Below are positions 25,102 to 34,938 of a stretch of 36,344 nt of DNA, piece after piece. Where the stretch lies: the IMG/VR virus record IMGVR_UViG_2541047905_000018. One strand, 5' to 3'. This stretch comes from a virus. Lineage: Duplodnaviria > Heunggongvirae > Uroviricota > Caudoviricetes. Under the pieces are notes generated by a model, which was not told the origin of the DNA, did no database searches, and worked only from the letters and a program-made list of their open reading frames with translations. Position numbers and translations under genes: made by a program. The first letter of the stretch is position 1. Each line of letters opens with the position of its first letter.

Positions 25102-25107
25102 GCATGT

Positions 25108-25137
25108 AAAAAGGCCCCAACACATGTGCGTGGGGCC
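25108..25137 (-). terminator. Rho-independent terminator on minus strand, downstream of the tRNA cluster
   Basis: GGCCCCA-11 nt-TGGGGCC followed by U5 on the minus strand. Confidence 0.5.
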
Positions 25138-25377
25138 TGAGAGTATACATGGTTTCAGTCAACTGCATGGTGCCGGGTGCCTCCCGGTGAATTCAGTACC
25201 AGCACCTGAATCCGCGATTATCCCATATACCTACTCGCTGATTGCCCATCCGCACAGGGGGATTCACCATGCCAGTTTCTTTTAACAAACTCCCCGCAAA
25301 ACAGACAACTGTCAACCGTCTGAATTGTGAGACATTTAAAAAAAAGGCCCGCAAAAGCGAGCCGGGAAAAATAAGTC

Positions 25378-25454
25378 TGGCGCGTTGTACTGGATTCGAA
25401 CCAGTGACCGATTGCTTAGAAGGCAATTGCTCTGTCCGGTTGAGCTAACAACGC
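25378..25454 (-). tRNA. tRNA-Arg (anticodon UCU)
   Basis: Hand-folded cloverleaf: acceptor GCGTTGT/ACAACGC, anticodon loop CUUCUAA, T-loop TTCGAAT, encoded CCA. Confidence 0.8.
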
Positions 25455-25467
25455 AGGGTACAGATAA

Positions 25468-25544
25468 TGGACCGCCATCGAGGACTCGAACCCCGCGCAA
25501 CCAGCTTCGAAGGCTGGTGCTCTATCCTGATGAGCTAATGGCGG
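25468..25544 (-). tRNA. tRNA-Arg (anticodon UCG)
   Basis: Hand-folded cloverleaf: anticodon loop CUUCGAA, T-loop TTCGAGT, encoded CCA; acceptor starts with C1-G72. Confidence 0.75.
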
Positions 25545-25551
25545 TATGTGA

Positions 25552-25627
25552 TGGTGGCCCTTGCTGGATTTGAACCAGCGACCTGGCGATTATGAGTCGC
25601 TCGCTCTCACCACTGAGCTAAAGGGCC
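25552..25627 (-). tRNA. tRNA with CAU anticodon (Met, or Ile2 if lysidine-modified)
   Basis: Hand-folded cloverleaf: acceptor GGCCCTT/AAGGGCC, anticodon loop CUCAUAA, T-loop TTCAAAT, encoded CCA. Confidence 0.8.
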
Positions 25628-30499: not shown

Positions 30500-31353
30500 T
30501 TACGCACCTCCTTATGCTTTTCGTTCAGTTCCGAGTCCACCAGCCCGGCAACGAATACACCATCGTTGATGTAGTCGTAGAGCGATGAAGCCAGCGGAGA
30601 CTGAACTGAAACCAGCATCGGATAAAGTTGTTCTAACCAAACGCGGTGAATTTCAGCCATGTAGAGGTAAACAACGTGGGCATTGTGCGCGACACATGAA
30701 GTATCAACCTTTCCGATCAGCGCCTGTTCCATCTGGTTAAAGGCATTGATGTATGCCTCTTTGAACTGGGCAGCACGTTTACCCGTGAAACCCATAGCAA
30801 GAAACGCAAAGCCATCGCGGGTTATTTGATAGCAAGGTAGTTTGCGAGTACCGCCGTTGGGCTGGCGTACCAAAATTGATGTCTCCGCAAAATTGCGGGC
30901 ACAAAACTCTGGAGAACAATCCAAAATGCGAATCTTTTTCAGAACATCGTCATGACGTTTAGAGAAGAAGTCAGCAACAGCCAAAGAAGATGTAACAGCC
31001 TGACCATCAACGATGGCAATTTCAGGTTGAGAGAGGGTTGGGAGAGTAGTCATAGTGACAGCCCCGGTAGTCAGTTTTTTAGAAAACTCACCACATGGGA
31101 CGCCAATCACAGAGGTGGTGAGACGTACAGGGTTGGCGTTACCGGAGACTACCGAACCCGGCCCGACCGAAGTCGGCCCTGTACGCCCCACCATAATTTG
31201 GGCGTAGCAATGCTCATGACACGAAAAAACCGCATGAGCGCGGTTATGCTCAGTAATCAATTTCAGGACGCCAATCCCGGCAACGGATTTTGCCGCTGCC
31301 AGAACAATATAACGCCCAGAATTATCAGAATCAATCATTACTGGTTTGCTCAT
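30496..31353 (-). CDS. Rha-family phage regulatory protein with about 100-aa N-terminal extension (start uncertain)
   Basis: Rha-like region begins at internal Met (31053, MTTLPTLSQPEIAIVDGQAVTSSLAVADFFSKRHDDVLKKI); the ORF is open upstream to ATG 31353. Confidence 0.55.
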   Translation of the reverse strand: MSKPVMIDSDNSGRYIVLAAAKSVAGIGVLKLITEHNRAHAVFSCHEHCYAQIMVGRTGPTSVGPGSVVSGNANPVRLTTSVIGVPCGEFSKKLTTGAVTMTTLPTLSQPEIAIVDGQAVTSSLAVADFFSKRHDDVLKKIRILDCSPEFCARNFAETSILVRQPNGGTRKLPCYQITRDGFAFLAMGFTGKRAAQFKEAYINAFNQMEQALIGKVDTSCVAHNAHVVYLYMAEIHRVWLEQLYPMLVSVQSPLASSLYDYINDGVFVAGLVDSELNEKHKEVRK

Positions 31354-32617: not shown

Positions 32618-33244
32618 ATGGAAACGGTTGGTCAGCGTATAAAAGCTCTGAGAAGAGTTACCAGAACGTCCCAGAAAGAATTGGGTAAATTTTGTGGAGT
32701 AAGTGACGTTGCTGTGGGGTACTGGGAGAAAGACATCAATGTCCCTGGTGGGGAAGCACTTTCAAAATTAGCGAAGTTCTTCAATACGTCAATAGATTAC
32801 ATTCTTTATGGTGCGGAGTTTGAAGGCAAACTCGTCACAAACATGCGCAGAGTTCCTGTAATCTCGTGGGTTCAGGCTGGGCAGTTTACTGAGTGCAGGA
32901 CAGCAGAAGTGTTTAGTGAAGTAGACAAGTGGGTAGATACATCATTAAAGATTGGTGATAACTCATTTGCATTGGAGGTTAAAGGCGACTCCATGACTAA
33001 CCCTAACGGCCTCCCAACAATACCAGAAGGCGCAACAGTGATTGTAGATCCTGATGCAGAACCCCGGCATGGAAAAATAGTCATCGCTAGACTTGATGGA
33101 ACAAACGAAGCCACAGTAAAAAAATTAGTTATCGATGGCCCTCAAAAGTTTTTAGTGCCATTAAATCCCCGGTACCCCAACATCCCGATCAATGGTAATT
33201 GCCTCATCATTGGTGTAGTCAAAGGAGTTCAATACGAACTCTAG
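32618..33244 (+). CDS. cI: CI-type prophage repressor (N-terminal XRE HTH plus C-terminal LexA-like S24 peptidase)
   Basis: 208 aa; HTH near N-terminus; C-terminal GDSM...K autocleavage-type domain (VKGDSMTNPNG...ATVKKL). Confidence 0.88.
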   Translation: METVGQRIKALRRVTRTSQKELGKFCGVSDVAVGYWEKDINVPGGEALSKLAKFFNTSIDYILYGAEFEGKLVTNMRRVPVISWVQAGQFTECRTAEVFSEVDKWVDTSLKIGDNSFALEVKGDSMTNPNGLPTIPEGATVIVDPDAEPRHGKIVIARLDGTNEATVKKLVIDGPQKFLVPLNPRYPNIPINGNCLIIGVVKGVQYEL

Positions 33245-33262
33245 CCCCCCTTTTCTCTAACC

Positions 33263-33325
33263 AAAACACCGAACTAAGAAAAGTTTGGTGTTTTCTCTTG
33301 CCATCAAAACTAAGTTAAGTTAGAT
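33263..33325. promoter_or_regulatory. Hairpin plus further CTAAG operator-like half-sites downstream of cI (candidate left operator or cI terminator)
   Basis: AAAACACC-16 nt-GGTGTTTT hairpin with AACTAAG in the loop, then AAACTAAGTTAAGTTAG. Confidence 0.4.
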
Positions 33326-33477
33326 TTTATATCAAAGATAACGAACAGGCAGGACGCCCACGAAGTAGCCGCCCGGGGCATATGAAGTCCAGGATGATTC
33401 GTTAGCAACAAAAAAGCGCCCTACAGGACGCTTAGCTCTTTAACAATCTTGGTATCCCCGTAACAAAAGAGGGTTCT

Positions 33478-33771
33478 ATGGTCATATTCTGTGCTTACGT
33501 TCATCCTAATGGATTTTTTATCAGCACCAACCAACAAGACGAATTCTGGATTCTACTTAGTAAGCAGGTCGGATGGGGACGATTCTGTCTAATCCGACCA
33601 GAATCAGAATTTACAGAGAATGGAGGGCTTTTTGAATTACGTGAAATACGTCCGGCAGATGGTCAAGCCCCTGACCAAGTAATCGAATCGTCAGCTGTTT
33701 TATGGCGTCGGCAGGAAGCGTTCGAAGCTGAGAGAGTAATTTCTTCTTATCTTCAGTCGTGGCAGAAGTAG
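33478..33771 (+). CDS. Hypothetical protein B2 (97 aa), paralogue of B1, co-directional with cI
   Basis: AGAGGG SD; about 44% identity to B1 over the conserved core (FW..LS...GWG.F.LIRP..EF...GGLFEL). Confidence 0.65.
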   Translation: MVIFCAYVHPNGFFISTNQQDEFWILLSKQVGWGRFCLIRPESEFTENGGLFELREIRPADGQAPDQVIESSAVLWRRQEAFEAERVISSYLQSWQK

Positions 33772-34114
33772 AACTATTGATGATACGTTCAAGTTCACAG
33801 AGAGTCTCATCATGCAATCTTATTGTCATAATCCCAAGAATAGCTTTAAGACCTCCATCATCACGAATGAAATCAATTCCATCTTTAGTAATTCTTAATT
33901 CAGGAATATTTATATTTATGCCATCCAAGTAATAATCAAGAGCATTCTTAATCAAGCCATGTTCTTCGAGATAAATTAAGTTCGAAATTAGGACATTATC
34001 ATCTCCAAATGCGTCACGAACAGACTGCAACGCATCATCAGAAATTTCATAAGGATGAGCATCATACAGTATTTGTAACAACTGCCTTTGTGCACTTCTA
34101 TCAAATTTGTCCAT
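33611..34114 (-). CDS. Hypothetical protein A2 (167 aa), paralogue of A1, convergent with B2
   Basis: Conserved with A1 (ITKDGIDFIRDDGGLKAIL, LRTLPADAIKQLT); 3' end overlaps B2 by about 160 bp on the opposite strand. Confidence 0.7.
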   Translation of the reverse strand: MDKFDRSAQRQLLQILYDAHPYEISDDALQSVRDAFGDDNVLISNLIYLEEHGLIKNALDYYLDGININIPELRITKDGIDFIRDDGGLKAILGIMTIRLHDETLCELERIINSSTSATTEDKKKLLSQLRTLPADAIKQLTIRLLGQGLDHLPDVFHVIQKALHSL

Positions 34115-34394
34115 CTTAAATAATCACCATGTTATTGGGGGTATCAAGATTAACCGAATCCTTGTTGTTGGGGAATAACCAGGTCCACCTCGCCTGATGT
34201 GGCTAAAAGCAGGCACATAACAGCTAAGTATTTTCAACCAGAGAGAATCCTTAGCGTTGTGGTGAATGCGGCTCAGCGCACGCGGGTTAAGGTTGAGGCT
34301 GACAGTCGACCTTCTGTGGATACCCACCCGCCTGGTGTGCAACCTTCGCCAGGCACCGGGAGGCACCCGGCACCACAACAGCCACTGCTTTGGC

Positions 34395-34438
34395 GGTACC
34401 AGTTTGTACACTTGCTTCCGGCTGGTACCGCTCTTTTT
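34395..34438 (+). terminator. Hairpin plus T-tract (plus-strand terminator; T-tract doubles as a boxA-like CGCTCTTTTTAC)
   Basis: GGTACCAG-19 nt-CTGGTACC followed by GCTCTTTTTAC. Confidence 0.45.
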
Positions 34439-34575
34439 ACAAAACAGAGAAGAGCATCACCGGACGACGGGCTCATAACCCAATCCATCCGGGCGGCTGC
34501 CACCGCAGGTGTTCTTCTCTGTTTTGTGGAGAAACCAACCGACCTTGCAGGGTCGATATGATGAGGAGCAGCAAA

Positions 34576-34938
34576 ATGGCTAGCGAACGCAGTACTGATG
34601 TGCAGGCATTTATCGGGGAGCTGGACGGCGGCGTATTTGAAACCAAAATCGGCGCAGTTCTCAGTGAAGTCGCTTCCGGTGTGATGAACACGAAAACCAA
34701 AGGTAAGGTCTCGCTCAACCTGGAAATCGAACCGTTTGATGAGAACCGTGTGAAAATCAAACACAAACTCTCATATGTTCGCCCGACTAACCGCGGGAAA
34801 ATTTCTGAAGAAGACACCACCGAAACGCCGATGTATGTCAATCGCGGTGGTCGCCTGACTATTCTGCAGGAAGACCAGGGACAATTACTGACTCTTGCCG
34901 GTGAGCCTGACGGAAAACTCCGCGCAGCAGGTCATTAA
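34576..34938 (+). CDS. YfdP-like early-left protein (120 aa)
   Basis: ATG with GAGGAG SD 7 nt upstream; length and synteny match K-12 CPS-53 yfdP as recalled. Confidence 0.55.
   Translation: MASERSTDVQAFIGELDGGVFETKIGAVLSEVASGVMNTKTKGKVSLNLEIEPFDENRVKIKHKLSYVRPTNRGKISEEDTTETPMYVNRGGRLTILQEDQGQLLTLAGEPDGKLRAAGH

Follow-up and report, generated by a model that had tools for sequence, protein, structure and literature searches.

Two described small RNAs are among the nearest known systems for the locus analysed here. One is sRNA-17, a 193-nt RNA from the mEp460-type prophage of Escherichia coli K1 RS218, which was mapped by 5' and 3' rapid amplification of cDNA ends (RACE) and by Northern blotting (Sun et al. 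2020, PMC7719688). Its authors reported no Rfam homolog and listed copies like the one considered below as 'degenerative sRNA-17' (PMC7719688). The other is the STnc100/PasD group, treated in a preprint which mentions neither sRNA-17 nor yfdP (10.64898/2026.05.13.724894). The locus is the gap 34115-34575 in a 36,344-nt stretch of phage DNA, hereafter the window, which carries a lambdoid prophage of the SfV / mEp460 / e14 / CPS-53 kind. The gap is situated just upstream of yfdP in the transcript of the early-left promoter pL. A first-pass annotation, made from the sequence alone, had described it as a GC-rich, structured and non-coding region that may encode an RNA-based antitermination element (nut- or put-like) or a small regulatory RNA.

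Compared with these systems, the gap is best read as a set of RNA modules of an SfV/e14/mEp460-type leader, namely a small RNA, a terminator that would serve as insulator and be read through after induction, and a structured 5' untranslated region (5' UTR) of yfdP. The probability of this reading is put at roughly 60%. The small regulatory RNA part of the earlier interpretation was retained, in the form of a homolog of sRNA-17 and relative of STnc100, while the nut/put antitermination part was given up for the gap.

The small-RNA unit and its terminator

The gap is non-coding, as had been described, and forms a strongly folded RNA within the early-left leader. Its G+C fraction is indeed raised, being 0.49-0.55 over 34000-34799 compared to 0.36-0.44 upstream (33000-34199) and 0.43-0.48 downstream. 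The stretch 34225-34580 folds to -154.5 kcal/mol against -118.2 +/- 5.4 kcal/mol in dinucleotide shuffles (z = -6.79), and none of 100 such shuffles folded as well, in agreement with the earlier description of the region as structured. Both hairpins listed there were also found in place: GGTACCAG (34395-34402) pairs with CTGGTACC (34422-34429), and CCGGG-AGGCA-CCCGG occupies 34356-34370. The statement that the gap holds no convincing open reading frame (ORF) was borne out as well: the ORFs of the gap have no Pfam match and no frame is conserved across 77 variants. The start of the gap is about 800 nt downstream of pL. The gap does not adjoin pL but makes up the distal portion of an untranslated early-left leader of ~1.2 kb. 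The modules on which the small-RNA reading is built are as follows.

34185-34254, + strand: conserved block upstream of the small RNA, with the hairpin CCACC...GTGG (34185-34202), AAAAGCAGGC and the hairpin CTAAG...CTTAG (34224-34254)
34255-34437, + strand: small-RNA unit of 183 nt, the sRNA-17 homolog, a multi-hairpin domain followed by a terminator
34354-34375, + strand: 22-nt core CACCGGGAGGCACCCGGCACCA, identical to the late-operon STnc100 copy (25189-25168, - strand), found by self-BLAST and alignment
34392-34438, + strand: intrinsic terminator of the small RNA, GGCGGTACCAG (34392-34402) and CTGGTACCGC (34422-34431), then TCTTTTT
25301-25102, - strand: full STnc100, 133 bits, called at the Rfam gathering threshold, just after three late-operon tRNA genes found by ARAGORN

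The position of sRNA-17 was obtained by placing its published primers on phage mEp460. All the primers (RACE, Northern and full-length) map exactly on mEp460. Relative to the strand that has the sense of yfdP, the primers used for 5' RACE and the probe of the Northern blot are antisense, and those used for 3' RACE are sense, which places sRNA-17 in the sense of yfdP. The full-length primers run from CGTTGTGGTG to GCTCTTTT, a distance of 194 nt. The window copy agrees with it in strand and location, and its initial 16 nt and final 67 nt are identical to those of sRNA-17. Both are located upstream of yfdP in an mEp460/SfV-type prophage and share the closing helix, linker, terminator and U-tract. 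The closing helix of the small-RNA domain is composed of 9 bp, formed by GUUGUGGUG (34256-34264) and CACCACAAC (34371-34379). The similarity does not extend over the full 193 nt of sRNA-17; the internal RACE and Northern primers have no match in the window, and the two interiors are of different type (A1 versus A2). In related loci the 9-bp helix is constant around interiors of at least four unrelated kinds (59, 107, 125 and 136 nt). RNAs of the sRNA-17/STnc100 type exchange interiors between conserved ends. A further difference is that control by ArcA and effects in trans have been reported for the RS218 form only (PMC7719688).

The covariance search proposed as a check in the first-pass annotation (Rfam, permissive E-value, 901 nt, 33900-34800) gave nothing nut- or put-like in the gap and only one family, STnc100 (RF02076), matching 34238-34440 with 36.0 bits (E = 4.9e-6), below the gathering score of 47 bits. 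Matches below this threshold were also observed at the equivalent site of Cronobacter phiES15 (40.6 bits) and Salmonella ST64B (35.1 bits). The architecture is that of STnc100. The cmscan alignment spans model positions 1-206, the 22-nt core is identical, and the closing helix with GGUGAAU, the first hairpin, the terminal CCGGGAGGCACCCGG hairpin abutting the closing helix and the 3' terminator are shared. The genomic place is different. STnc100/PasD RNAs are described downstream of Q, tRNAs or stx (10.64898/2026.05.13.724894), whereas the gap copy lies away from this usual late region, in the early-left leader between the cI-side moron and yfdP. Homology of the window to many other phages begins only at 34363 or 34371 and runs rightwards. 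These comparisons support 34255-34437 as a homolog of sRNA-17 and a sub-threshold relative of STnc100, and they suggest that the variant of the window would be expressed as a discrete RNA. The link between sRNA-17 and the STnc100/PasD group, which rests on a sub-threshold score and shared architecture, appears to be new; no paper linking the two was found in the literature searched.

The block 34185-34254 is common to SfV, K-12 e14, Cronobacter phiES15 and minimal leaders such as L099. The small RNA may have its own promoter or may be cut out of a longer transcript, both being possible. GAGAAT at 34243-34248 was considered as an own promoter; it has no -35 element and is not kept in ST64B.

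The string CGCTCTTTTTAC at 34429-34440, which had been likened to boxA, is present in the window but turned out to be the U-tract of an intrinsic terminator. In 58 of 61 distinct variants, a run of T5-T7 follows immediately on a GC-rich stem, which is the arrangement of an intrinsic terminator. The stems are of at least seven different sequences, for example GGCGGCATC/GATGCCGC, CTGGCGG/CCGCCAG, GTCGGCGTC/GACGCCGAC and TGCCCATC/GGTGGGCA. While the T-run and the stem are kept, the boxA letters are lost in relatives, SfV showing CCGTCCTTTTTAC (CCGTCC) and others GCCGCATTTTTTTAC, and the letters GCCGCA and CCGCCC occurring elsewhere. The 3' RACE end of sRNA-17 falls within the U-run of the terminator. 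GGCGGTACCAG/CTGGTACCGC along with the T-run is an intrinsic terminator.

The three-way junction upstream of yfdP

Two modules occupy the stretch between the terminator and yfdP.

34438-34528, + strand: predicted three-way-junction RNA, here called domain C, from RNAalifold with 28 distinct early-left sequences
34528-34578, + strand: translation-initiation region of yfdP, read from the sequence

Domain C is predicted to have three helices. P1 is a long stem of ~20 bp (34438-34458 with ~34508-34527), P2 is a hairpin like an anticodon arm (34460-34492) with GGG-CUCAUAA-CCC at 34469-34481, and P3 is a hairpin (34493-34506) which is variable in sequence and length. On the predicted structure, 98.2% of the cells in the 28 sequences are paired, and nine of the 33 pairs are changed on both sides. 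Examples of such compensatory changes are a pair with G-C in 16 and C-G in 12 sequences and another with C-G in 18 and A-U in 8. The observed score was reached by none of 500 shuffles, and slid partners were only 37-50% paired.

The 14 nt of CGGGCTCATAACCC (34468-34481) are identical to the anticodon arm of the K-12 metZ tRNA-fMet, and the window copy possesses the three G-C pairs and the CUCAUAA loop of an initiator anticodon arm. CUCAU is kept among the relatives while the next two loop bases vary, AA being replaced by UA in ST64B and by UC in others. The mimicry of the initiator anticodon loop is not strict, because the 3' side of the loop varies. The pattern used for retrieval fixed the loop, and a second search used the P1 flanks only, together with relatives found by BLAST; the P1-flank scan gave mostly chance matches, but it also yielded CUCAUUC loop variants. 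Scanning with a conserved 21-mer pattern revealed 120 loci in viral contigs and 23 in genome contigs, distributed over Escherichia, Shigella, Citrobacter, Enterobacter, Kosakonia, Leclercia, Mixta, Erwinia, Pantoea and others. Domain C showed no match in the Rfam search of 33900-34800 and no description of the motif was found in the literature searched. ARAGORN called no tRNA at domain C, finding in the window only the three late-operon tRNAs.

A part of domain C is ~82% like a sequence of Klebsiella phages that directly follows the last of their late-operon tRNA genes. This late-operon form is of ~71 nt and has the same three-way topology, with a closing stem of 6-7 bp (GGCCUG/CAGGCC) followed by ACCA or GCCA. 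It starts 6-7 nt after the genuine tRNA, and its G1-C, G2-C and C3-G are as in tRNA-Met. ARAGORN did not call it a tRNA in standard, mitochondrial or relaxed mode. It was observed in L006 (1506-1580), L005, L256 and 12 other loci of Klebsiella/Raoultella phages.

Domain C is thus like a tRNA in its anticodon-arm hairpin, identical to that of tRNA-fMet, and in possessing a sister form that is tRNA-sized, follows tRNA genes and ends in NCCA. It differs from a tRNA in having neither D arm nor T-loop, and the window copy has a closing stem of ~20 bp and no CCA. As modelled, domain C is well supported as an apparently undescribed tRNA-like RNA motif. One leader, L014, contains at ~2810-2870 (oriented; -300 to -240 relative to the junction motif) a piece like the 3' half of a tRNA, GGTTCGATTCCAG..., after its first terminator copy. 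L014 also has the small-RNA domain in a minimal form of 59 nt. Pieces derived from tRNA thus recur in leaders of this kind.

A wider proposal can be made from these resemblances. Domain C and its late-operon form would represent an undescribed family of phage tRNA-like RNAs, either free and NCCA-ended or embedded in a long processing stem, which would act in trans on a reader of the tRNA-fMet/Met anticodon arm, and the leader motif at 33335-33409 (see below) would be a second, sequence-unrelated class of put-like antiterminator. Taken as a whole this proposal is tentative and rather unlikely. The targets proposed under it are an anticodon nuclease, for example toxins of the VapC type, for which the RNA would be a decoy or inhibitor, methionyl-tRNA synthetase (MetRS) or the ribosomal P site. 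If true, the tRNA-like junction could reveal a new phage route to the tRNA or translation-initiation machinery.

The three-helix topology is maintained with compensatory changes in Escherichia, Salmonella, Citrobacter, Enterobacter, Kosakonia, Mixta, Erwinia and others. Whereas P1 and P3 vary, CUCAU and the sequence flanking this loop stay constant, and the place between the terminator and the first gene is fixed. This is hard to reconcile with domain C being a functionless remnant, either a decaying tRNA-Met-like pseudogene or a recombination scar from tRNA clusters, to which the 14-nt identity with the tRNA-fMet anticodon arm, the NCCA-ended sister form after tRNA genes, the T-arm-like GGTTCGATTCC piece in L014 and the degenerate copy of K-12 e14 could point. 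A remnant of this kind is considered unlikely.

The initiation region of yfdP contains a conserved GGAGAA (34528-34533), the hairpin CGACC-TTGCAG-GGTCG (34540-34555), a Shine-Dalgarno (SD) sequence GAGGAG (34563-34568) and the ATG at 34576, along with extra in-frame yfdP ATGs at 34558 and 34561. The stem of the hairpin varies (CGACC/GGTCG, GGCGG/CCGCC, GCCC/GGGC) while its loop is constant, T(T/G)GCAG. K-12 CPS-53 has only the last ~30 nt before yfdP, and yfdP itself, in common with the window and was rejected on that ground as a proxy for transcript data; K-12 e14 is a useful relative.

Several variants have AUGAG, the complement of the CUCAU loop, at the start codon of the first early-left gene or close to it (34558-34578 in the window). 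In early-left leaders, domain C always precedes the first ORF by ~110 nt. Together with the hairpin after it, domain C might accordingly act only in cis, as an operator for translation or stability of the first early-left gene, for example through CUCAU-AUGAG pairing. However, no covariation of this pairing was seen, the AUGAG cases are homologous N-termini and not independent, and the tRNA-adjacent late-operon form has no such downstream partner, all of which leaves a purely cis-acting role doubtful. Pairing between the loop of the leader motif (UAUGA) and the CUCAU loop was judged by eye and rejected, since the variants change without compensation.

Candidate antitermination signals and proposed read-through

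The sequence immediately downstream of pL contains the following elements, all outside the gap.

33298-33326, + strand: pL, TTGCCA-17-TAGATT, from a promoter scan, overlapping the operator copy AAACTAAGTTAAGTTAG.. (33307-33330)
33335-33409, + strand: covarying 5' leader RNA motif of the pL transcript, candidate cis-acting (put-like) element
33415-33432, + strand: hairpin AGCGCCC-TACA-GGACGCT, ~100 nt into the pL transcript
33434-33446, + strand: rrn-type boxA AGCTCTTTAACAA, following this hairpin

The promoter-like TTGCCA-17-TAGATT, which is overlapped by an operator repeat shared with the cI-cro intergenic region, is taken as pL. The leader motif is of ~65 nt, with the pattern GAACAGGCAGGACGCCCACGAAGUAGCCGCC-stem-GGCAUAUGAAKW-stem-GAUGAUUCG, and its distance from the -10 is nearly the same, ~20-30 nt, behind at least eight different types of pL/operator. 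RNAalifold predicted a closing stem which covaries and an inner stem of 5 bp in which each position shows three pair types (CCUGG/CCAGG, CCGGU/ACCGG, CCCCA/UGGGG). A covariance model of the motif, R1, revealed exactly one copy per prophage, always after pL and including K-12 e14, and no copy in HK022, mEp460 and phiES15. The hosts of the motif have different immunity regions and comprise SfV, ST64B, e14 and phages of Yersinia, Pectobacterium and Klebsiella. The motif showed no Rfam match at a permissive E-value in 33250-33620. A search of the window for a second (putR-like) occurrence of the leader motif, or of modules from the gap, found only the 22-nt STnc100 core.

In logic, the leader motif resembles the put of HK022, being a ~65-nt structured RNA right after pL with no recognisable N. 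The likeness is limited to the leader motif, and there too no sequence or model match was found and no copy follows pR; the gap itself shows none of the put properties and is in the wrong position.

AGCTCTTTAACAA agrees at 12 of 13 positions with what we take to be the rrn boxA consensus. It is the only match in the window to TGCTCTTTAACAA at two or fewer mismatches, having one, and since shuffles gave a mean of 0.81 such matches, the count alone is not significant. The hairpin before boxA is as in rrn leaders; compared with lambda nutL and rrn boxA, the module is situated outside the gap and no N protein was found. The earlier remark that an N-like protein is lacking was confirmed on the + strand downstream of pL, where no arginine-rich ORF of this kind is present. 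Read on the - strand, the hairpin 33415-33432 with its T-run resembles a terminator of the moron 33611-34114.

The leader motif and boxA may be regarded as natural candidates for the antitermination signals. Protection from Rho and from termination would be needed, because the leader is long, untranslated and structured and has an internal terminator. If the leader motif is an antiterminator, it could explain the passage through the long leader and its terminators in N-less lambdoid phages of the SfV/ST64B/e14 type.

The modules can be joined in one scheme. The unit 34255-34437 would yield an RNA of ~183 nt of the sRNA-17/STnc100 kind, ending at its own intrinsic terminator. In the lysogen, the terminator would end the small RNA and shield yfdP...xis-int from read-through. 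Upon induction, transcription from pL would be made processive by the leader motif 33335-33409 and/or by boxA with Nus factors, and it would read through the terminator. The read-through RNA would then fold the junction 34438-34528 and the hairpin 34540-34555, which together would form the 5' UTR of yfdP. The long stem P1 is a likely processing site, and its cleavage would release the tRNA-like core with its initiator-tRNA-like anticodon arm. The control by read-through, the processing at P1 and a role of the tRNA-like core are suggested here from sequence and predicted structure.

Several observations weigh against this scheme. The loop of the terminator is long, about 13-19 nt, and may weaken termination, the efficiency of which is uncertain. 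A consensus scan of the + strand over 34185-34254 revealed no sigma-70-like promoter just upstream of 34255. The interior of ~110 nt is another module than that of sRNA-17, being STnc100-like in the window, and the STnc100 match is itself below the membership threshold. The leader-motif copy of the window has a C.A mismatch in the covarying stem. The boxA module is present in only some relatives and absent from many. HK022 putL, located on the HK022 record, showed no BLAST match to the leader motif beyond short words and none by R1. In the sRNA-17 deletion mutant, yfdP was up 95-fold (PMC7719688). This rise is ambiguous and cannot decide the matter, as the primer arms, as we read them, leave the terminator in place. 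The cat gene of the pKD3 cassette presumably reads towards yfdP in this deletion.

The gap was also weighed as a nut-like (boxA/boxB) or put-like antitermination site of the early-left operon. CGCTCTTT matches the start of boxA, and in a structured region of a window with no N-like protein an RNA-only mechanism would be attractive. But the letters of boxA are not conserved as the T-run and stem are, the 3' end of the homologous RNA maps there, the string is ~1.1 kb from pL and downstream of both the true rrn-type boxA and the pL-tracking motif, and neither similarity to HK022 putL nor anything of the kind in Rfam was found. With its position ~800 nt after pL, its terminator tail and no N, the gap is very improbable as such a site; the candidates adjoin pL instead.

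Gene calls in the gap and the surrounding prophage

K-12 e14 has the same layout as the window, with the repressor ymfK, the leader motif, ymfJ, the opposite-strand moron ymfI, "ymfH" and xisE-intE. Over 97% of its length, K-12 ymfH (b1142; L265 370-681) can be aligned with the gap, and the identity is 86%. The e14 copy has an intact small-RNA domain and terminator, and a degenerate junction (GGG-UUAAUAA-CCC). In the window the YmfH frame has 70 amino acids (aa), versus 103 aa in K-12, where the stretch is shortened by a deletion of 1 nt. The gap sequence was found in 2780 of 5426 complete E. coli genomes, 1828 of which cover at least 80% of the gap, and the stretch is routinely annotated as a hypothetical protein, or as YmfH in K-12 e14.

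The 77 distinct variants of the stretch 34370-34533 have lengths of 167, 168, 169, 170, 171, 186, 190, 193 and 194 nt, the differences between which are not multiples of three. In six of the 77 neither strand has an open frame, and none of the frames is open throughout the set. Two ORFs of the gap have matches in PHROGs, both to families of unknown function, and PHROG families are built from gene calls. That the gap encodes small proteins, for example the sense YmfH frame or the minus-strand ORF 34764-34273 (phrog_3651), is highly unlikely: the two PHROG matches, the hypothetical proteins or YmfH annotated in RefSeq and phage records and the phenotype given by ymfH clones in a retron screen are outweighed by the origin of PHROGs in gene calls, the lack of a Pfam match, the unstable length of the YmfH frame, indels that are not multiples of three, the absence of a frame open in all variants, a conservation that base-pair covariation explains and the antisense position of the minus-strand ORF to yfdP.

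From these sequence comparisons, the ymfH gene call is regarded as spurious. The YmfT iModulon includes ymfH along with xisE and intE, which fits read-through upon derepression. Overexpression of ymfH was a prophage trigger of the retron-Sen2 toxin in a genome-wide screen (bioRxiv 10.1101/2020.06.22.160242). Read as RNA, the stretch calls for another interpretation of the phenotypes of ymfH overexpression and knockout, such as this retron-toxin trigger, in which the clone may act through its RNA.

The remaining features which define the setting of the gap are given below.

32520-32320, - strand: cro
32618-33244, + strand: cI, LexA-type (helix-turn-helix and peptidase S24)
34147-34120, - strand: promoter-like site TTGATA-16-GATTAT for the moron, from a consensus scan

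The operator word AAACTAAG(N5)TTAG has two copies between cI and cro (32530 and 32579) and a third at 33307-33330. In the 3' direction from pL, the order is the minus-strand moron ORF 33611-34114, the gap, yfdP (ATG 34576) and yfdQ (DUF2303), and the early-left operon of relatives continues to xis and int. The moron ORF matches phrog_3983, a family of unknown function. Its promoter-like site accounts for the left end of the gap, the first ~70 nt of which (34115-34185) belong to the minus-strand moron as its promoter region. This stretch is not common to SfV or e14, neither of which has this moron.

Some other features of the window were observed apart from the gap. An ORF of 97 aa on the + strand (33478-33771) with a good SD sequence (AAGAGGG) starts right after boxA and overlaps the minus-strand moron by 160 nt; it has no match in Pfam or PHROGs, and either of the two overlapping ORFs may be on the coding strand. 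In the early-right region, isrK (68.6 bits) and C4 antisense RNA (82.3 bits) are adjacent at 31111-31299 (- strand), and this pair is also present in mEp460. The late operon at 25102-25627 (- strand) contains tRNA-Met(CAT), tRNA-Arg(TCG), tRNA-Arg(TCT), a terminator-like hairpin and the full STnc100, upstream of the lysis genes.

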